Source: Candidatus Algichlamydia australiensis
GTDB taxonomy: Bacteria > Chlamydiota > Chlamydiia > Chlamydiales > JAJFMI01
Length of the DNA: 64,000 nt
Direction: 5' to 3'
Assembly (NCBI GenBank): GCA_033977065.1
Contig: JAXCHI010000003.1
Coordinates: 128,001-192,000 of the forward strand
This document shows, one piece after another, positions 8,999 to 22,267 of the stretch. Below the pieces are notes generated by a model. The model was not told where the DNA came from. It worked only from the letters and a program-made list of their open reading frames with translations, and made no database searches. The position numbers and the translations under genes are program-made. The number at the start of each line of letters is the position of its first letter. Position 1 is the stretch's first letter.

Positions 8999-10093
8999 TC
9001 AAAAGTCAAACCTCAGCCGCAATGTAAATCCCTGCATTACAAGTGATCCATGATCTGTCTCCTCTAACACGCGATAAAGTTTGTTCATCTGGAACCAGCG
9101 CTGCTCTTCCCAAAGCATATCTATGGAGAGATGGTACAGACTGTTAAAAAACCAGACCTCACCACGTAATCCTGTTGCAAACTCCAAAACAGGTTGGATC
9201 GTATGAGTGCCGTTTTCCGTTCTAAAACGTACAAAATCGACTCCATTTGTTCCAATTCTGTCAGACCTTTGGACATCAAAGTAGCTCCATAAGCCTGAAA
9301 AGGCAACGTCTCCAATAAATGACCAATACTTATTAAAATGCCACGCACCATCAAACCCTGTACGCATTCCCAATCCGTAAGAGTCCTGTGTAATATGCAT
9401 GCGCTCTTCTTGCATCACTCCCAAATTTGTAACAGAGTCGTAATGGACAACATAATCTTGCTGCTGCCAAGTACCTTTCAATCCAAAATGGGGACGAAAA
9501 GAGAGATACTTACTAAAAAAAGAGTTACGTCCCAGTTCCAACTCAACTACTTGAAACTGCAACTTCCATTCAGCATTTGCTTTATAGGGAATAAAGTCCG
9601 AGTTGATACTCCCACCAATGTACCACGTGCGCTGCAGGTCAGTAGTCGCGCTATCGCGTGTGACAAATCTCTTTGTTCCTTTCGGTTGAATCCATGTGAC
9701 TTGTCCAAAAAGGTCCCAATCATCATGCTCAAGTGAAACTCCTAACCCAAACTTAAAGCCCGAATAGTATCGAAAATCAGGTTCGAAAACCTCTCCACGT
9801 TTTTCTGGTTCTATCCCGAAGTTTTGCACACCGCTTGTTACAAACTCAAGACCTGATTCACGCCCTGTCCAATAGAGGTAGGAGCCGGTCATAAAATACC
9901 CAGCTCCGCCTTTTACGCGTGGACCTGCGGAGGGAGTTGCGTAATATTCTAGCATTGCATCGCACGGTCTATGTAAAGCGACAGAACTTTCCCATGGGCA
10001 GCCACAAGCTGAGCCCGTTTGGCTCAAGCTTTGTTCGGAGTCTTTTTGTGCAAAAAGACAGACAGGAATTAGCAGAAAAAGTTTTCGAAACAT
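8999..10093 (-). CDS. Lpg1974/MOMP-like porin, paralogue 4
   Basis: Signal peptide MFRKLFLL (ATG 10093 preferred); YLYWTGRESGL, LGRNSFF, WEEQRWF motifs; ends in FDF. Confidence 0.87.
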   Translation of the reverse strand: MFRKLFLLIPVCLFAQKDSEQSLSQTGSACGCPWESSVALHRPCDAMLEYYATPSAGPRVKGGAGYFMTGSYLYWTGRESGLEFVTSGVQNFGIEPEKRGEVFEPDFRYYSGFKFGLGVSLEHDDWDLFGQVTWIQPKGTKRFVTRDSATTDLQRTWYIGGSINSDFIPYKANAEWKLQFQVVELELGRNSFFSKYLSFRPHFGLKGTWQQQDYVVHYDSVTNLGVMQEERMHITQDSYGLGMRTGFDGAWHFNKYWSFIGDVAFSGLWSYFDVQRSDRIGTNGVDFVRFRTENGTHTIQPVLEFATGLRGEVWFFNSLYHLSIDMLWEEQRWFQMNKLYRVLEETDHGSLVMQGFTLRLRFDF

Positions 10094-10168
10094 ACGGCAG
10101 TAGACCTTACTGTAGATGAGCAAAAACAATTTTTGCAAGACCAACATTTAATATAGGGAAAGAGAAAT

Positions 10169-10382
10169 AAAAAAAATGGCCACCATACCGAGTCGGGGTG
10201 CGCGTACCGACGCACCCCCGCTCCCCCTTGAGTTTCACCTCGCCATGCCAAATCGCGTGCTCGTCGGAGGGGCGTGCACAGCACTACCCCGTCCTCCTGC
10301 GCTGCAATTTTTCAGTGCCGATCTGAAACCGCGGAGCGTTCGGTCGCGCTTCGCGTCATCCCTCACGCGGCTAATTTTTTTT
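10169..10382 (-). repeat. Structured GC-rich element family D, diverged inverted copy
   Basis: Reverse complement aligns with the core 21376..21609 / 21783..22016 (e.g. TCAGAT.GGC..TGAAAAATTGC.G.GCAGGAGGA...GTAGTGCT.TGCACG...TCCGACGA). Confidence 0.8.
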
Positions 10383-10517
10383 ATTGAAGCGCGAAGCGAT
10401 TAACTGTTTTCAAAAAGTGTGGTATATGCGCGAAGCGGCGTGACGGCTTCATATCGCAAAGCAAAATCGGATTTTAGACGTCGTGGCAGTACTGCGTACG
10501 GCGTGGTGGCTGAGAGG

Positions 10518-10674
10518 GAGGCTTCGAATTGCTTTCATTCACAAAAAGAAAGATTTTTTTACAGAAAAAGTTTCTGCAGAGCGGAGCAAACTTTTTAAAG
10601 TTTGTATAGCTCGAAGAGCTTTTACTGGGGAAAAAGATGATTTTTGTGAGTGGAATGAATTTGAAGGCAGCCTC
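10518..10674. repeat. Palindromic miniature element family G (single copy in window)
   Basis: GAGGCT...AGCCTC ends; long stem TTCATTCACAAAAA / TTTTTGTGAGTGGA; central CAAACTTT-TT-AAAGTTTG hairpin. Confidence 0.65.
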
Positions 10675-10713
10675 GTAAATTTGATTTGGCGCAGCGAGAT
10701 GGAGACGAATATT

Positions 10714-11961
10714 TTAAAAAGATAATTCAGGCTGAAGTAAGAGCATTGTTTCTTTTAGCACTTCGGCAAACGTATCTACCTCTTCAGGCGTAGAATAAAT
10801 ACCAAATGATATGCGAGCAAGTGAAGTAATACCAAAACGTTTGAGAGTAGGCTGCGCACAAAGATGTCCCGTCCGTAGCGCAACTCCTTTAAGGCCCATA
10901 AGCGTTCCAATATCAAGGGCATGAAGACCCTCAACGGTAAAAGAGATGATCCCCCCTTTTTCTGGTGCTGCCCCCCAAATCTTCACCTCATCAATAGCCT
11001 GAAGCGCTTTTGTCGCTTTGAGGAGGAGTCTCTGCTCCCAATCGCGAATCTCTTCAAGCCCCCAGCGTGTGAGAAAATCGATTGCTTCACCGAGACCAAT
11101 TACCTGAGCAATAAGAGGTGTTCCTGCTTCAAACTTAAGTGGTGCACCTTGAAAAGTAGTCCCCTCAATGGAGACACGCTCAATCATATCTCCGCCACCT
11201 TGATAAGGAGGAAGCTCTTCTAAAAGTTCGCGTTTACCATAGAGAATTCCTACTCCTGTTGGCCCATACATTTTATGGCCTGAAAAGGCGTAGAAATCAC
11301 AATTGATTTTTTGCATGTCCAGCGGAATATGGCCTGCTGCCTGCGCCCCATCAATCATTACTTTTGCACCTACCGCATGCGCTGCACGGACAATCTCCTC
11401 GATAGGATTGCAAGTACCGGTGGTATTGGCAATGTGTGCAAGACTTACAATTTTGGTTTTAGGTGTCAGAAGTTTTTGAAATTTTCCCCAATCTAATTCG
11501 CCAGACTCTGTCATGGGAACCCACTTTAAAGTCGCACCGCGCTCTTTTGCCATAAGCTGCCACGGCACAATATTGGAGTGATGTTCCATCTCCGAGATCA
11601 GAATCTCATCGCCCTCTCTAATAAATTTTTTGCCAAATGAAGAGGCAACAAGATTAATTGAATCTGTTGTTCCACTGGTAAAAATAATCTCCTCTTCTTC
11701 TTTCGCATGAATCAGCTTCTGCACTTTGCGCCGCACTACAGAGTAGGTCTCTGTTGCTTTTGCAGCAATTTCATAAATAGCGCGGTGGACTGTTGCATAC
11801 TCTTCTGCGTAGAAATGACTCATAGCATCAATTACGCATGTAGGCTTGTGGCTTGTGGCAGCCGTATCGAAATAGATGAGAGGCCTGCCACTCATCTGCT
11901 TTTTTAAAATAGGGAATTCACGGCGCACCTCAGAGATGTCAAAATCATGTCTTGCATTCAT
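10714..11961 (-). CDS. sufS: Cysteine desulfurase SufS
   Basis: YFDTAATSHKP, EHHSNIVPW, FSGHKMYGPTG (PLP lysine) and RTGHLCAQP motifs. Confidence 0.96.
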   Translation of the reverse strand: MNARHDFDISEVRREFPILKKQMSGRPLIYFDTAATSHKPTCVIDAMSHFYAEEYATVHRAIYEIAAKATETYSVVRRKVQKLIHAKEEEEIIFTSGTTDSINLVASSFGKKFIREGDEILISEMEHHSNIVPWQLMAKERGATLKWVPMTESGELDWGKFQKLLTPKTKIVSLAHIANTTGTCNPIEEIVRAAHAVGAKVMIDGAQAAGHIPLDMQKINCDFYAFSGHKMYGPTGVGILYGKRELLEELPPYQGGGDMIERVSIEGTTFQGAPLKFEAGTPLIAQVIGLGEAIDFLTRWGLEEIRDWEQRLLLKATKALQAIDEVKIWGAAPEKGGIISFTVEGLHALDIGTLMGLKGVALRTGHLCAQPTLKRFGITSLARISFGIYSTPEEVDTFAEVLKETMLLLQPELSF

Positions 11962-13067
11962 AAAGACTCCGCTACAACTTTTTGCAGTGCCGTATCTTCA
12001 AAGAGTGTAAGAAGAAATCCTTTGAGGAGCATCTGCTTGCCTAATTTTTTTTCGATTCCACGTGTTTGTAAGTAGTGTAGGTAGCGCTTATCCACTTCGC
12101 TGACTGTTGCTCCGTGGGAAGCTTTAACATCATCCGCAAAAATCTCAAGATTAGGCTTGCTAAAAGCGCTTGCCTTAGGGTCTAAGAGAAGGTGGTTAGT
12201 GAGCTGGTAGGCGTCGGTAAGCAGAGCCTCTTTTTCAACATAAATTTTCCCTTCAAAGCTTGCTCGCGATCTGCCAGATAAAATATTTTTAAAGTGCTGG
12301 TGAGAAGTTGTTTTAGGAGCGATATGGTGAGCCAAAACGTTCACATGATGCTGCGCATCATCAGCTAATTGTGCAGCTCCTTTAAGCATTGCATCTGCTC
12401 TTTCTCCACGCAACTCTACGTTCACCTCTTCGCGTGCAATCCCTTCACCTGTTCTGAAGGAGTGGTTTTGTAGCCGCGCATTTTCATGGATACGCGCTTG
12501 CATTGTACCAAAAAAACGAGCTTGTTTCTCTAGGTGCAGGTGCTCCTCGATTAAAAGCTCCGCTCCCTTCTCAAGGGCGATCTCTGTTGACGAGAAGGTC
12601 CAACCACTCACTATTGTATTGCGATGCAGTTTTACTCTAGCTCCCTCTCCTAAAAAAATTGTGAGATGAGGAAACGCATTTTTGAGAAATGTTTTTGATA
12701 AATCCAGAGGCGCGTCCAGCTCCACTCGGGGAGGAATATAGAGGAAGAGCCCCTCTCCTGAAAGAGCCTTTGAAAGTTTTAGGAAGGAGCTCTCCCTTCT
12801 TTGGGAAAAGAAGAGCGAACCATACTGTTTTTTAGCTTGGGAGAGTGGAAGAGCAACTACAGGTTTTGGAAAAGAGAAATCGTAGTTAAGAGTCTCAAAA
12901 TCAGAAAGAGTCTCTTCATAGAGACTCTCAAGCGGAAAGTAGCGAAATGCATCCTCTTTTGGGTTGGGCAAACCTTGCTCTATAAAAGCCTCCCAACTAC
13001 GCCTCTGTTCGCTATCACGCTCCTCTTTTTCAAAAAGAGAGAACAAACTTTTCTCAAGAGCTGACAT
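11958..13067 (-). CDS. sufD: Fe-S cluster assembly protein SufD
   Basis: KPNLEIFADDVKASHGATV and YLQTRGI motifs; position in the suf operon; start uncertain (13067-13088). Confidence 0.92.
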   Translation of the reverse strand: MSALEKSLFSLFEKEERDSEQRRSWEAFIEQGLPNPKEDAFRYFPLESLYEETLSDFETLNYDFSFPKPVVALPLSQAKKQYGSLFFSQRRESSFLKLSKALSGEGLFLYIPPRVELDAPLDLSKTFLKNAFPHLTIFLGEGARVKLHRNTIVSGWTFSSTEIALEKGAELLIEEHLHLEKQARFFGTMQARIHENARLQNHSFRTGEGIAREEVNVELRGERADAMLKGAAQLADDAQHHVNVLAHHIAPKTTSHQHFKNILSGRSRASFEGKIYVEKEALLTDAYQLTNHLLLDPKASAFSKPNLEIFADDVKASHGATVSEVDKRYLHYLQTRGIEKKLGKQMLLKGFLLTLFEDTALQKVVAESL

Positions 13068-13794
13068 GCACATACCCCTCTCTTTCAAGCTCTAATGCGA
13101 GGCTAGCATCACCACTTTTTACAATTTTTCCATCAGCTAAGACGTGTACAAAATCGGGCTTGATGTAGTTAAGCAGACGCTGGTAGTGGGTAATCAAAAT
13201 GAGCCCTTTTTCCGGCTTCATTAGCTTATTAACCCCCTCTGATACAACTTTTAACGCATCGATATCAAGTCCTGAGTCTGTCTCATCTAAAATAGAAAAT
13301 TTGGGGTCTAAAATCGCCATTTGCAAGATCTCATTGCGCTTCTTCTCTCCTCCAGAAAAGCCTGTATTGAGGTCGCGCTCTAAAATGGTTGTGCGAAAAC
13401 CAAGATCCTTTGCCACATCCTCTGCTCTTTCTCGAAATTCTTCTGCTGAAAGAGGCTCTTCGCCCTTAGCTTTGCGATGCGCGTTGAAGGCTTGGTGTAA
13501 AAACTCAATATTTTGAATTCCTGGAATCTCGATTGGATATTGAAAACCCATAAAAAGTCCAAGGTGGGCGCGCTCGTCTGGTTCAAGCTCTAAAATATTC
13601 TGGCCCTCAAAAAGAATTTCTCCGCTTGTTACTTCATATTCAGGATCGCCTGAAATAATTTTAGCAAGCGTCGATTTGCCCGCTCCATTTGGACCCATAA
13701 TTGCGTGAATCTCACCAGGGTTAACACTTAGAGAGATCCCTTTCAAAATAGGTGTTTCTTCAATTTCTACGTGGAGATCTTTGATAATTAACAT
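13054..13794 (-). CDS. sufC: Fe-S cluster assembly ATPase SufC
   Basis: GPNGAGKST, FSGGEKKRNEILQ, LDETDSGLDIDAL and ITHYQRLL motifs. Confidence 0.97.
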   Translation of the reverse strand: MLIIKDLHVEIEETPILKGISLSVNPGEIHAIMGPNGAGKSTLAKIISGDPEYEVTSGEILFEGQNILELEPDERAHLGLFMGFQYPIEIPGIQNIEFLHQAFNAHRKAKGEEPLSAEEFRERAEDVAKDLGFRTTILERDLNTGFSGGEKKRNEILQMAILDPKFSILDETDSGLDIDALKVVSEGVNKLMKPEKGLILITHYQRLLNYIKPDFVHVLADGKIVKSGDASLALELEREGYVHVSS

Positions 13795-18411: not shown

Positions 18412-19146
18412 CTAGTATTTAATGCCAATGATTGAAGCGTTTCTTCCTGTTTTTTTTTCATCTCGGCGAAACGAAAAACAGAGATCTGGGTTGTCGTAAG
18501 AACAGATGCGCGAAAAGTGCAGGTGCTTTTCTTGCAAACCTAACTCTAACAGCTGCCACTTTGCAACGGCCCATAAATCAAAGTAGTTGGGTTTCACTTG
18601 AAATTGCCAAAAACTCTCCGGAAGTTCGCTTCGGTAATTTACAAATTCTCCTCGATTTTGCCCCAAACTTGGAGAGATGGAAACGCGCAAATCTGTAGGA
18701 GAACTTCCAAAAACCTCTTTCATCCTACGCACTATTTTCGCATAAATGTTTTGACACTGCCCTCGCCAACCTGCATGAGCCACTCCCACCGCTCTTCTCA
18801 CTGGATCATAGAAAAGTGCAACCTGACAATCAGCCCATGTCATCATCAGAGCAATCCCAGGAATATCTGTAATCAAACCATCGCAGTTTCCTACAAACTC
18901 AGTCGAATCTTCCTTGACGTGTGCAATGGTTGCACCATGAACAACTCCTCCCGTGATCCATCTTGAAAATCCTAAAGCTTCCGCCGCACGCCTGCGATTT
19001 TTCAAAACATTTTCCTTATCATCACCCACGTTTAAAGAGAAGTTTCCCTCGCTACGAAAAAAGTGTCCATGAGGCACTTCCATCTCCCTAGAGTGCGTGA
19101 ATTTTTTATTTATCACTTTGAAACCTATTTCTAATTGCGGTACCAT
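18412..19146 (-). CDS. pgeF: YfiH/PgeF family (peptidoglycan editing / laccase-domain) protein
   Basis: DGLIT, ADCQVALF, AHAGWRG and FSFRR motifs; start uncertain (19146 or 19083). Confidence 0.88.
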   Translation of the reverse strand: MVPQLEIGFKVINKKFTHSREMEVPHGHFFRSEGNFSLNVGDDKENVLKNRRRAAEALGFSRWITGGVVHGATIAHVKEDSTEFVGNCDGLITDIPGIALMMTWADCQVALFYDPVRRAVGVAHAGWRGQCQNIYAKIVRRMKEVFGSSPTDLRVSISPSLGQNRGEFVNYRSELPESFWQFQVKPNYFDLWAVAKWQLLELGLQEKHLHFSRICSYDNPDLCFSFRRDEKKTGRNASIIGIKY

Positions 19147-19172
19147 TGATGCATCTTAAGCAAAAAACTAAC

Positions 19173-21173
19173 ATGGGACTATCAACTTATTCAAGCATTG
19201 CCACTCCGTTTCTCTCCATTAGAATGTACGAAAGAGAGAGAACAATCCGCGCCGGAGGAAACCGCTACCTCCCGCTCCTTATGCAAATTTTGCAACTATC
19301 TACGGTAATCAATTTTGTAAACGAATCCGATGTCTTAACCCCACTTTTTGGCAGAGCCGTCAAACTAAATTCTGGCTATTTCATAATGGCAGAGATTGCA
19401 TTCGGGGTTTTTCTCCATCTATCCCCCATTAATAAACAGCTTAAAACACCTACAATTGTACCGGAAAAAACGATCAAAGGGGTAGATTTAGAAAATAAAA
19501 AATTTGTTGTTGTTATTCCCTCTCATAAAAAAAATCCTACTCGTGTTTCCAATGCTCTCTCAAGAGCCATTACACCTCTTGCGAATCAATTCGATGAGAG
19601 CACACCTGTATCTCGGACTGCGCTTCGGATTTTTAACAACATCTCAAATTTTAGCATGATCGTTTTATTCGCTACATCTTTCGGTCTTATTGCAAAGGGA
19701 GAACGAAGAAAAGGCGCTACAATTCTCGGAATTTTTGCCGCAAAAGGCGCCATAGAAACCGCCAACTCATTAGATAGAATTGCAGAGGTGTTTCGAGATC
19801 ATAAGTTTACATCTACTGGGGATCGAATAAAAAGCTTTTCAGATGCAATTGCTATTCCCCTTTCTCGTATTCGTTACCACTTCAACTCAATCTCAAAGAG
19901 AATCAGCGTCGTAAGAGCATATACAACACTCTATACAGGAGACGAATTAGAGAAGTTTTTTTCTGTTTTAGATTTAGCAAATGATCACTTTGGAAATCTA
20001 GTCTATCGCATTTACAAGTGGAGCCAAGGTGAGAAAAAAGATGCATACGTCAAGCAAAAACTCTACTCACCTGTAGAAAACCTTAACCACTGCGAAGTCG
20101 ATGAAACACACATTCAACAGGCAATCATTCTCCCCCCAGAGCCTGATCTTAATCTTGAAAAATCTCTTATTGAGCTCTACGATAAGACAACTTTTTCAGA
20201 TCAAATCTGCTTGGATAACCAGGAAGATAAAAAATTAATGAAAAAAATCATGGAGGGTGTGGTTAAAAACACTCCTGAATCCATACGAGCCTATGCTAAA
20301 GATGGAATCCGTTTGTTTATTCGAGGAGTGATTTGGCAGAAACCTATCGCTGGAAAAATGCGTTCTCAAATGGACTATGACAGAGTCCGCATTATGACAA
20401 AATGCCTTGTAGAAAAATTCCAAAACTCTAAAGATCCAAAACAAAAACCCTACATAGATCGAGCACTCTTCACGTTAGGCCTTCTAGGCCACTACTGTTC
20501 AGCGGGGTATTTTCGAGTTCTTGAACCTCTCTATTCAAGTTTTGTTGAGTCTAAATCGACAGATAGAAAAACAAAAATTCTCAACCTTTTAAGAAACACA
20601 AGACACAATATCCTTGATGGTAATTTTCTACAAAAAACCAATCCCTTACAAGCCTCGGTAGAAGACCCTAACGATATTGATTACCGAAATCAAACCCTTC
20701 TTGAAGACTACTGGCTTGCAAACGAACCTCCCACCTTTGGAGCACAAGCTGAATATGGAAATAACCTTAGCTGGATAAGCGTTGGAGTGCGCTATTTACA
20801 GTTCAAACCGTTGGAGAATCGAAGGAAACTCTACACTCCCCAAACTATCTGTGAAGCAATTAATGAAGATTTAGCTAATGAGCGGATAGTAAAAAAAGAA
20901 GAAACCGAAGAGATTCAAAGAAGTCAAGTGCCCATGGACGACTACCTGGAGTGGTTTGTTATGTGGCTCATGATAAGAAAAAACTATAAAAATAGAGATG
21001 ATGCCGTCAAGTTTTTTAACGATAACATCAAAATTGAAGAAGAGATCGCGCCCAACAATGAGGGAGAAGATTGGCAATATCGATACACAATTAAAGAGAA
21101 TTATCTTCGATTGATGCTTGTCGAGTTGGGAATCTTAAAAGTCCCAGAAGACTCTCCTTATCTGAAAAAATAA
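19173..21173 (+). CDS. Hypothetical protein, paralogue of 22391..24340; candidate effector
   Basis: Long ORF; N-terminus MGLSTYSSIA aligns with MNLSAFSSIA of the paralogue; N-terminal hydrophobic segments; GHYC motif. Confidence 0.8.
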   Translation: MGLSTYSSIATPFLSIRMYERERTIRAGGNRYLPLLMQILQLSTVINFVNESDVLTPLFGRAVKLNSGYFIMAEIAFGVFLHLSPINKQLKTPTIVPEKTIKGVDLENKKFVVVIPSHKKNPTRVSNALSRAITPLANQFDESTPVSRTALRIFNNISNFSMIVLFATSFGLIAKGERRKGATILGIFAAKGAIETANSLDRIAEVFRDHKFTSTGDRIKSFSDAIAIPLSRIRYHFNSISKRISVVRAYTTLYTGDELEKFFSVLDLANDHFGNLVYRIYKWSQGEKKDAYVKQKLYSPVENLNHCEVDETHIQQAIILPPEPDLNLEKSLIELYDKTTFSDQICLDNQEDKKLMKKIMEGVVKNTPESIRAYAKDGIRLFIRGVIWQKPIAGKMRSQMDYDRVRIMTKCLVEKFQNSKDPKQKPYIDRALFTLGLLGHYCSAGYFRVLEPLYSSFVESKSTDRKTKILNLLRNTRHNILDGNFLQKTNPLQASVEDPNDIDYRNQTLLEDYWLANEPPTFGAQAEYGNNLSWISVGVRYLQFKPLENRRKLYTPQTICEAINEDLANERIVKKEETEEIQRSQVPMDDYLEWFVMWLMIRKNYKNRDDAVKFFNDNIKIEEEIAPNNEGEDWQYRYTIKENYLRLMLVELGILKVPEDSPYLKK

Positions 21174-21185
21174 TTTTTTGTTAGT

Positions 21186-21351
21186 CTAGATAGTGTCGTC
21201 AAAAGGCTATAATCAGATTATTTTTCATGTTTGCAGCTTATTTTTGTGCAGAAATTGAAGCTGAATTTGTAAATTCCGCTTCATTTGAGCACAAAAATGG
21301 AGCCCAAACGTAAAAACAGGGTGATCAAAAGGATTTAACGACACTGTTTAG
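21186..21351. repeat. Palindromic miniature element family C, copy 1
   Basis: First 124 bp match 35098..35221 with one mismatch; begins at CTAG; imperfect terminal inverted repeat. Confidence 0.9.
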
Positions 21352-21646
21352 AACATGCAAAGTTTTCTGCAAAACAAAAAAAACAGCCGCGCAAGCGACG
21401 TGAAAGGGACCCTACCCAAAACGAAGTGGAGGGTGGGGAATGAACGCGCGATGCGCTCGATGGCTTCAGATTGGCTTTGAAAAATTGCGGTGCAGGAGGA
21501 AGAAGTAGTGCTTTGCACGGTTTTCCGACGAAACGCAATTTGGCATGCCAAGATGAAGCTCAAAGGGCAGCGGGGATTTGCCCGACTGTCTCTATTGGCT
21601 GTTTTTTTTAAATTAAACACTAATATTTTCTGTTACAGAGTACTAG
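21349..21646 (+). repeat. Structured element family D, copy 1
   Basis: 298-bp near-identical direct repeat of 21756..22053; core closed by an AAAACAGCC / GGCTGTTTT stem. Confidence 0.92.
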
Positions 21647-21755
21647 TACTCTGTAACAGAAAATTTTGCTATTCTTTTTAACGTCAAAGCCTTCGCATAA
21701 AAATGGATCCCAAACGTGAAAAGTAAAGCGATTGTATGTGATTGAAAAAGCTGTC

Positions 21756-22053
21756 TAGACCTTGCAAAGTTTTCTGCAAAACAAAAAAAAACAGCCGCGC
21801 AAGCGACGTGAAAGGGGCCCCTCCCGAAACAAAGTGGAGGGTGGGGAATGAACGCGCGATGCGCTCGATGGCTTCAGATTGGCTTTGAAAAATTGCGGTG
21901 CAGGAGGAAGAAGTAGTGCTTTGCACGGTTTTCCGACGAAACGCAATTTGGCATGCCAAGATGAAGCTCAAAGGGCAGCGGGGATTTGCCCGACTGTCTC
22001 TATTGGCTGTTTTTTTAAATTAAACACTAAGATTTTCTGTTACAGAGTACTAG
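21756..22053 (+). repeat. Structured element family D, copy 2
   Basis: 298-bp near-identical direct repeat of 21349..21646. Confidence 0.92.
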
Positions 22054-22057
22054 GGAA

Positions 22058-22185
22058 GTGATTCAGGAACTTTTCCCCAACGAGAAGATTGGCTCTTATC
22101 TAGCAGGCTCCTTTGCACAAAAGGGCGACAGTGAAAAACAGCATTACTACCTTGTTACAGGCAAAGAGCGATAAACTCTTCTTTT
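22058..22185 (+). pseudogene. Truncated duplicate of the gabD 5' end
   Basis: Translates as (V)IQELFPNEKIGSYLAGSFAQKGDSEKQH..., matching 24361 onward; premature TAA at 22172-22174. Confidence 0.9.
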
Positions 22186-22267
22186 CATTTTAGAACCGCC
22201 GAAAAAATGCCCGTGAGGAGTTTTTATCAACCCTGTTCCTGTAAATTCAATTTTTGTATTTGCGATA

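Follow-up and report, generated by a model that had tools for sequence, protein, structure and literature searches.

A solo transposon arm kept for base pairing between the suf and porin transcription units of Candidatus Algichlamydia australiensis: a probable two-way terminator or insulator

The DNA analysed here (the window) is a stretch of 64,000 nucleotides of Candidatus Algichlamydia australiensis, taken from the forward strand of contig JAXCHI010000003.1 (positions 128,001 to 192,000; assembly GCA_033977065.1), and coordinates without a further label refer to it. The source genome, designated G000, comprises 1.80 Mb in 7 contigs with 42% G+C and is 93.4% complete; G001 denotes a congener and G009 a genome from another chlamydial family. 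The subject is a solo structured arm ('type B core') at 10169..10382 on the minus strand, recognised by its sequence, minimum free energy (MFE) fold, homology and covariation, which lies between the end of a suf gene cluster and a porin gene. The original prediction, made from the letters alone, had described it as a copy of a GC-rich, multicopy element with covarying structure and a candidate new non-coding RNA or mobile RNA. Based on the comparisons below, it is a solo arm that belongs to an old chlamydial family of miniature inverted-repeat transposable elements (MITEs), which are non-autonomous DNA transposons. It is kept for its pairing and is most likely, at a probability of roughly 0.55, a two-way transcription terminator or insulator between the suf and porin units.

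The gene following the arm on the minus strand encodes a porin-like outer membrane protein of the Legionella_OMP family (8999..10093; Pfam PF05150, E 1e-20). According to an alignment of two loci, its start is likely the ATG at 10093; the start of the longest open reading frame (ORF) is 10147, 22 nt from the arm, and automatic annotation may thus over-extend the gene into its promoter region. A promoter-like TTGCAA-N18-TACAGT was found by alignment of the 3' flanks at 10109..10138 (minus), between the T-run of the arm and the porin start. Its TTGCAAAAATTGTTTTT part is kept in both species and it is the putative porin promoter; the 16-18-nt consensus scan did not report it because it falls below the match thresholds of that scan. 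On the other side lies the last gene of the suf cluster, encoding a sufS-like class-V aminotransferase (10714..11961, minus; PF00266, E 1.5e-145), together with a SufBD-like ORF (11958-13088, minus; PF01458).

Read on the minus strand from 10382 to 10169, the arm starts with AAAAAAAATTAGCC and ends with GGCCATTTTTTTT. The MFE fold, on the minus strand throughout, has four parts. Positions 10382-10367 pair with 10183-10169 in a closing helix, P1, which is clamped by A8...T8. Inside it lie a small hairpin on the 5' side (10355-10345), the long central hairpin P3 (10330-10231), with GTGC-TGT-GCAC as its apex, and an extended 3' hairpin P4 (10218-10195). The short 5' hairpin characterises type B. 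The arm has no remaining transposon ends, and 3' of P4 it carries a relic of the ancestral one, CCCCGACTCGGTA.

Two related cores lie elsewhere in the window on the plus strand. The core at 21376..21609 is a young copy of type A, with a larger 5' hairpin, inside a MITE that has its right inverted repeat at 21625-21643 and a variant left end; the core at 21783-22016 was shown by alignment and by its MITE ends to be carried by a complete MITE. The proposed homology of the 10-kb arm to both cores holds (nhmmer E 9.4e-20, 70.7 bits), with a mean column identity of 79% over the whole length in a MAFFT alignment of the three copies. The 10-kb arm also scores 162 bits with a covariance model, R1, which consists of P3 and P4 and has 165 positions. 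The pairing-preserving differences that had been pointed out are present in the alignments, namely GCTTCA/TGAAGC to GTTTCA/TGAAAC, TTGGC/GCCAA to TCGGC/G(G)CGA, and AAATTGC/GCAATTT to GCGATTT with a U.G pair. The GTGC-nnn-GCAC apex is invariant, the short CGGG..CCCG hairpin is extended to GGGGGTGCG..CGCACCCC, and the hairpin near the 5' end has another form in the 10-kb copy, all as described before.

Covariation was evaluated in a MAFFT alignment of 14 distinct copies from G000 and G001, for which RNAalifold gave a consensus of 42 pairs. In this alignment 94.3% of the cells pair, compared with 88.2 ± 0.6 in column shuffles, and both sides have changed in 16 of the 42 pairs versus 8.5 ± 1.6 in shuffles, a count reached by none of 500. 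The covariation that had been suspected from three copies was thereby confirmed. When the partners were slid by 1-3 columns as a control, only 30-48% of cells paired and 1-6 pairs were doubly changed. In a set of 53 arms from five genomes, both-sided changes occurred in 30 of the 42 pairs (19.0 ± 1.8 in shuffles) and doubly changed cells numbered 228 (71.5 ± 7.3), with 0 of 500 shuffles reaching either value; these counts lean towards the fold model because the alignment was fitted to it.

The closing helix P1 consists of an A-run plus (C/T)AGCC paired with GGCT(G/A) plus a T-run, and it occurs in the compensated variants CAGCC/GGCTG, TAGCC/GGCTA and CTAGCC/GGCTAG. At least 10 of its 14 positions are paired in all 12 full-length copies of the genus (G000 and G001). 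For P2, only the 4-bp base was recovered by RNAalifold on the MAFFT-aligned 5' parts; reading by eye gives the compensated variants CUGCGACA/UGUCGCAG, CUGCAUCA/UGAUGCAG and CUGGAGC/GCUCCAG. The three-hairpin fold is real and has been maintained in evolution by compensatory change.

The pairing also has a direction. Wobble pairs favour the named strand, with 45 G.U against 4 A.C cells in the 14-copy alignment, in agreement with the G-U strand preference that had been noted, and the copies outside G009 have 51 against 8. The sense strand is the better folder in 42 of the 53 arms. For a young copy the MFE is -104.4 kcal/mol in sense and -79.9 in antisense orientation (z-scores -7.75 and -6.44), and for the 10-kb copy it is -97.0 and -83.2 kcal/mol (z-scores -4.29 and -3.96); since the z-scores differ less than the energies, part of the gap between the strands is due to base composition.

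The porin orthologue of the congener was located by tblastn at locus L036 of G001 (77% amino-acid identity over residues 59-382). A type B arm with the same extended P4 lies upstream of it at the same distance, and the gene upstream of that arm encodes a TrkH-like transporter, unlike the sufS-like gene in the window. The two orthologous arms share 163 of 197 aligned bases (83%), whereas in the porin gene 48.1% of third codon positions are identical and in the flanks, with gaps counted, 52-53% of positions. Identity amounts to 74 of 84 paired columns and 67 of 89 unpaired ones. Six pairs differ between the two arms, of which four are changed on both sides and still pair, and two are one-sided mismatches in the window copy. 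The fold of the 10-kb arm is under selection for pairing, and this orthologue comparison is the strongest single piece of evidence. The arm at 10169-10382 thus descends, as an immobilised unit, from the common ancestor of the two species. No further site syntenic with G001 (76% complete) was found for the other arm copies, the porin locus alone being common; the copies at C2:229916 and L042 have neighbours in common and a different position. Three copies of the family adjoin Legionella_OMP-type porin genes (window 8999-10093; G000 C2:2170-3336 and C3:96458-97615).

These data bear on two other explanations. The first, which we regard as unlikely, is that the arm has become the gene of a trans-acting small RNA, with its own promoter and a stable RNA of ~215 nt ending at U8, for example in envelope or porin regulation. 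The fold kept at the orthologous locus with its four compensated pairs, the wobble pairs favouring the sense strand, the conservation of unpaired stretches (67/89), the T-run at the 3' end and the porin paralogues beside three family copies would all fit such a gene. However, no sigma-70-like promoter was found upstream of the arm in the window or in the congener by a consensus scan, and the 5' flanks of the two arms are only 52% identical, with gaps. In addition, head-to-head pairs of arms in G001 leave ~20 nt between their 5' ends, and the same unit is carried by 17 young transposon copies whose positions relative to genes are random.

The second explanation, which appears very unlikely, denies any function: pairing would be a by-product of template switching at palindromes and of gene conversion, and the 10-kb copy would be junk. 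The family is indeed mobile and palindromic and its copies are inserted at random, the copies at G000 C4:148689 and C2:248629 are decaying (long branches, 56-72% identity), and the strand bias in G009 is weak. Neither process, however, is expected to favour one strand as the G.U excess in the genus does. The unpaired parts are conserved as well, the syntenic copy has been kept far better than silent sites, and P1 has been retained with compensation across ~190 nt.

The young copies show how the unit is carried in the source genome. G000 contains 17 full arm copies that are 95-100% identical, plus ~12 partial or diverged ones. Alignment with flanks revealed that homology among the young copies extends past the core to inverted ends, GTACTCTGTAACAGAAAAT. 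The complete MITE in the window, 405 bp at 21646..22050 (plus), has these inverted repeats at 21646-21664 and, as the complement, at 22032-22050. It is flanked by TA within CTAG (21643-21646 and 22050-22053), and the left TA is common to it and the preceding MITE. Among the 17 young copies, 14 are bracketed by both repeats. The repeats of 11 of these lie 366-368 nt apart; two copies with a nested insert have a spacing of 442-443 nt, and one has 484 nt. The other three of the 17 have one recognisable repeat. The end GTACTCTGTAACAGAAAAT occurs at 83 sites of G000 at up to 3 mismatches, and 14 short MITEs have identical ends with 126 nt between the repeats. Nearly every copy is flanked left and right by TA, in CTAG, and abutting neighbours have CTAG in common, a pattern that fits insertion at TA within CTAG with duplication of the TA. 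On a crude ORF map, from which the gene context was also taken, the copies are intergenic except one in a doubtful ORF of 160 aa. These elements are small, non-coding and multicopy and have terminal inverted repeats (TIRs), as is characteristic of MITEs. What had been called a multicopy structured element is confirmed as such, and the further suggestion of an independent non-coding RNA family or mobile RNA is not, because the young copies are passengers of a TIR-bounded DNA MITE.

The first MITE of the 21-kb pair deviates from this scheme. It has no canonical left end, and its left part (21188-21330) includes a palindromic segment of ~120 nt, which the copy at G000 C2:95681-96199 has in inverted orientation. 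At ~21170-21187, just past the stop codon (21173) of the ORF 19146-21173, a degenerate sequence resembling an end, ATTTTTTGTTAGTCTAG, is present.

The family extends far beyond the genus. BLAST with the core gave matches in 3 of 41 genomes including G000, namely the congener and one weak match. With the covariance model R1, 10 of 151 genomes of the order were positive; they belong to seven family codes, and G000 is among them. G009 (99% complete) has 75 R1 matches at E ≤ 0.01, mostly as head-to-head (-,+) pairs. These are foldback elements with two inverted arms, each made up of P2, P3 and P4, flanked by TA and with the ends TAGACATGTCGGG. An alignment of 12 such elements has sharp boundaries (TAGACATGTCGGGG...CCCCGACATGTCTA), and the end motif TAGACATGTCGGG was found at 44 + 51 sites with up to 2 mismatches, compared with 11 + 12 for a reversed control. 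End pairs in G009 are ~450-600 bp apart; truncated or minimal elements are shorter, at 45-320 bp. The arm sits next to the transposon end ...CCCCGAC(A/T)TGTCTA, and since CCCCGACT is kept both inside the window cores and in the G009 ends, CCCCGACT marks what used to be the transposon end. Two other genomes of the order (G103 and G148) contain single elements that end in this way. The units of G001 are arranged in head-to-head fashion with ~20 nt between them, and the ends that enclose them are related to the MITE ends of G000. The original suggestion of a mobile RNA is not supported, as the fold forms the inverted arms of TA-flanked foldback elements in other chlamydiae and no RVT_1 domain was found in G000.

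Public genomes were searched with a pattern scan that gave many chance matches in GC-rich genomes, and only the rows confirmed by R1 were used, at least 28 among 80 loci. Among the matches listed, the confirmed records are labelled by their submitters as Chlamydiae, Rhabdochlamydiaceae, Parachlamydiales and Verrucomicrobia, and five such genomes have 1-12 R1 matches each. A near-perfect foldback at locus L161 has arms of 285 nt that are 96% complementary and 42 nt apart. Beside it, a stretch of ~76 nt comprising an element end and its flank occurs in three tandem repeats (L161 1955-2750). At another locus (L228 1048-2411, from G155 C14), head-to-head arms enclose, where a short centre is usual, an ORF of 235 aa (1358-2065) with a lipoprotein-like signal peptide, which may be a passenger gene of the arms, like the cargo of a mobile insertion cassette.

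Taken together, the family consists of old non-autonomous DNA transposons, that is, MITEs of chlamydiae, and the 10-kb copy is one solo arm. In the genus of the window each arm has acquired a fourth helix, the closing helix P1, and the P1-bearing unit was later captured by a second MITE, giving rise to the 17 near-identical copies.

Known RNA families and partner genes were also searched. With Rfam 15 at gathering thresholds, the whole window yields only 3 tRNAs and nothing at the element. At E ≤ 10, two chance-level matches in 10000-10600 both lie outside it, and 28 matches in 21200-22200 are far below gathering, the best being microRNA models on the end palindrome at the inverted-repeat junction of the MITEs. 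The elements of G009 and L161 have no match at E ≤ 0.1, HEARO included. Known RNA families (tmRNA, RNase P, SRP, 6S, HEARO, riboswitches), of which the first four had already been doubted in the original prediction, are thus ruled out by the lack of an Rfam match. A protein-coding nature was rejected because the copies differ by indels whose lengths are not multiples of three, among them the 13-nt extension of P4, and have no reading frame in common.

In G000 no hits were obtained with PF00078 (RVT_1), PF01797 (Y1_Tnp, HUH), PF07282 (TnpB zinc-ribbon) or DDE_3. DDE_3 is likewise missing from G001, G009 and G103, IS110-type and other transposase families not having been searched, and PF07282 gave no hit in G001, G009 or G148; G103, a genome with only one arm, has one. 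The proposed check for copies beside a transposase, HUH nuclease, TnpB/IscB or reverse transcriptase gene was therefore negative for the families searched in G000. A retron or group II intron RNA was rejected because no reverse transcriptase gene (PF00078) was found in G000. A derivative of IS200/IS605 (PATE) or a TnpB/IscB guide RNA was rejected as well, since Y1 and TnpB were not found there and the ends are symmetrical. The multicopy proteins of G000 form four small clusters, of which only one is a transposase, of the IS5 family. It belongs to an insertion sequence (IS) of 1110 bp (DDE_Tnp_1_5 + DDE_Tnp_1) with the ends GGCCTTGTTGCGTAAATAGC, present at L104 646-1755 (C2) and L107 492-1601 (C3); the copies are 99.8% identical, fragments occur in addition, and one of the two copies lies ~800 bp from a MITE. 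Its ends are unlike the MITE ends, and the IS5-family transposase was rejected as their partner for this reason. G148 has IS630-type elements without ends of the arm family, and no end pairs at IS-like spacing were found in G000 or G009. The passages found in the Algichlamydia paper (PMC11317633) mention 11 transposases and no small repeats, and nothing relevant appeared in that part of the literature which a search on MITEs in chlamydiae and Parachlamydia repeats brought up.

It could also be proposed that the fold serves the transposon itself, either as a cis structure (single-stranded DNA or RNA) for a transposase or host factor or as an RNA for mobility that is read outward like the right-end RNAs of TnpB, the 10-kb copy being a relic. 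Arms from several families of chlamydiae retain P2-P4, as do Verrucomicrobia-labelled records; P4 is subterminal, directly ahead of the conserved end CCCCGACATGTCTA; in the (-,+) pairs the sense strand is always directed outward; and the arms of a G001 pair keep the fold at ~75% identity. If it were true that the fold serves mobility, a transposition cofactor not yet known would be indicated. On the other hand, no gene for a TnpB zinc-ribbon, Y1/HUH, reverse transcriptase or DDE_3 protein was found in G000, and no TnpB or DDE_3 in G009 despite its 75 matches and 99% completeness; a transposase gene between arms was not seen, the one wide pair enclosing the lipoprotein-like gene; and a relic would not remain 83% identical while silent sites dropped to 48%. 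As an account of the 10-kb arm this seems quite unlikely. A related proposal, in our judgement more doubtful still, is that the arm represents an undescribed transposon-borne structured RNA of chlamydiae and Verrucomicrobia-labelled genomes, read outward like the RNAs of TnpB, IscB and IS110, with the porin copy as its domesticated descendant.

For the 10-kb arm we prefer the function of a two-way terminator or insulator, a reading suggested by the A8...T8 clamp of the genus arms. The element would act as RNA on the minus strand: transcripts coming from suf would fold P2-P4, and P1 would close just as the U8 tract emerges, so that transcription would stop ahead of the porin promoter. In the opposite direction, the small hairpin and the complement of the A-run would form a textbook intrinsic terminator, and the suf and porin transcription units would be insulated both ways. 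Several features are consistent with such a role. A T-run of at least 5 is found 15-16 nt past CCGAC in 9 of 12 genus copies, compared with only 11 of 38 arms in G009, where the distance varies. The antisense pattern of hairpin plus T-run is present at all three loci scanned (10351-10370; 21399-21386 and 21807-21794; L036 1621-1639), and on the sense strand T8 is abutted by the long-range helix P1 only. A pattern scan of the minus strand between sufS (10714) and the arm gave no other terminator-like site. In G009, 18 of 19 elements face at least one gene 3' end (11 tandem, 7 convergent, 1 divergent).

Several observations weigh against the terminator, or against parts of the history on which it builds. 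Termination requires neither P2-P4 nor conserved unpaired stretches, and the latter are 75% identical between the orthologues. The sense-strand 'terminator' would be unconventional, its closing helix spanning ~190 nt. Since the G009 arms keep the fold without a fixed T-run, termination cannot be the ancestral reason for the fold, and the family-wide reason may be mobility or an element-encoded RNA. The strand bias is weak outside the genus: G009 arms have 41 G.U against 60 A.C cells, where two fixed pairs account for 46 of the A.C cells and a single pair for 14 of the G.U cells. The 17 young copies are oriented at random to genes (4 sense, 4 antisense, 5 convergent, 4 divergent). The 10-kb arm and the L036 arm are not resolved as sisters in the copy tree, in which 1 of 11 inner branches is well supported, and part of the apparent compensation may accordingly be gene conversion from paralogues. 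As for the transposon, the flanking TA may be either a target duplication or, just as well, the last two bases of the ends themselves, and no transposase with matching ends was found, G000, G009, G103 and G148 being among the genomes examined.

A second small repeat, unrelated to the arm and here called X, was found by blastn of 10383-10720 against G000 and the G001 loci. It is ~125 nt long and is represented on the minus strand by 10679-10709 plus 10425-10515 (span 10425..10709), interrupted by an insert of ~165 nt that is also found at G000:C3:370885-371089. Repeat X has the motifs GATTTTGCTTTGCGATA and CCGCTTCGCGC and at least 15 copies in G000, and it adjoins the 5' side of four type B arms, namely the 10-kb arm, L036 and L043 of G001, and G000 C2:54329.

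The usual picture of a small non-coding transposon is a simple hairpin that is constrained at its ends only. The arms described here keep a multi-helix fold through compensatory changes across families of chlamydiae, and an immobilised one has been preserved before a porin gene while silent sites were saturated. The porin locus may be a concrete example of a reduced intracellular genome obtaining a structured regulatory module, be it a terminator, an insulator or an RNA, from mobile DNA. In practical terms, the covariance model allows GC-rich 'orphan' islands between genes and spurious ORFs, dozens in number, to be masked or labelled when chlamydial genomes are annotated.

Known systems resemble the arm family in different respects. 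The Correia elements (CREE/NEMIS) of Neisseria and similar TA-duplicating MITEs are folded when transcribed and can terminate transcription or alter the expression of neighbouring genes. The arm family is likewise small, non-coding, multicopy and intergenic, with TIRs flanked by TA and without its own transposase. In contrast to Correia elements, where the two ends form one hairpin, each arm of ~230 nt has three helices, or four in the genus, that covary across families, and a solo arm has been conserved in orthologous position; the two groups have no sequence similarity. REP/BIME, ERIC/IRU, RUP/BOX and the Rickettsia palindromic elements are extragenic palindromes which, where tested, work through RNA, either stabilising 3' ends or serving as attenuators, and REPs are mobilised by RAYT (Y1) transposases. 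The arms are also repeated extragenic palindromes, often between convergent or tandem genes, but these known elements are much shorter and simpler and have other ends, and Y1_Tnp was not found in G000.

The right-end or omega RNAs of TnpB/IscB elements (HEARO and relatives) are folds at a transposon end that are read outward. A large conserved fold at a transposon end, with outward direction and non-autonomous copies, is common to these and the arms. The arms differ in that the many-copy genomes have no TnpB/IscB-type gene, the inverted ends are symmetrical with TA, unlike those of IS200/IS605, no Rfam family including HEARO matches, and a variable guide segment is not evident. Finally, a bidirectional intrinsic terminator consists of an A-tract, a GC-rich stem and a T-tract. 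The arm has the same outline, with A8...T8 flanking a GC-rich closing stem, an antisense hairpin followed by a T-run, and a position at an operon end; it differs in that the sense closing stem holds ~190 nt of additional structure, whose inner helices are conserved beyond the needs of termination.

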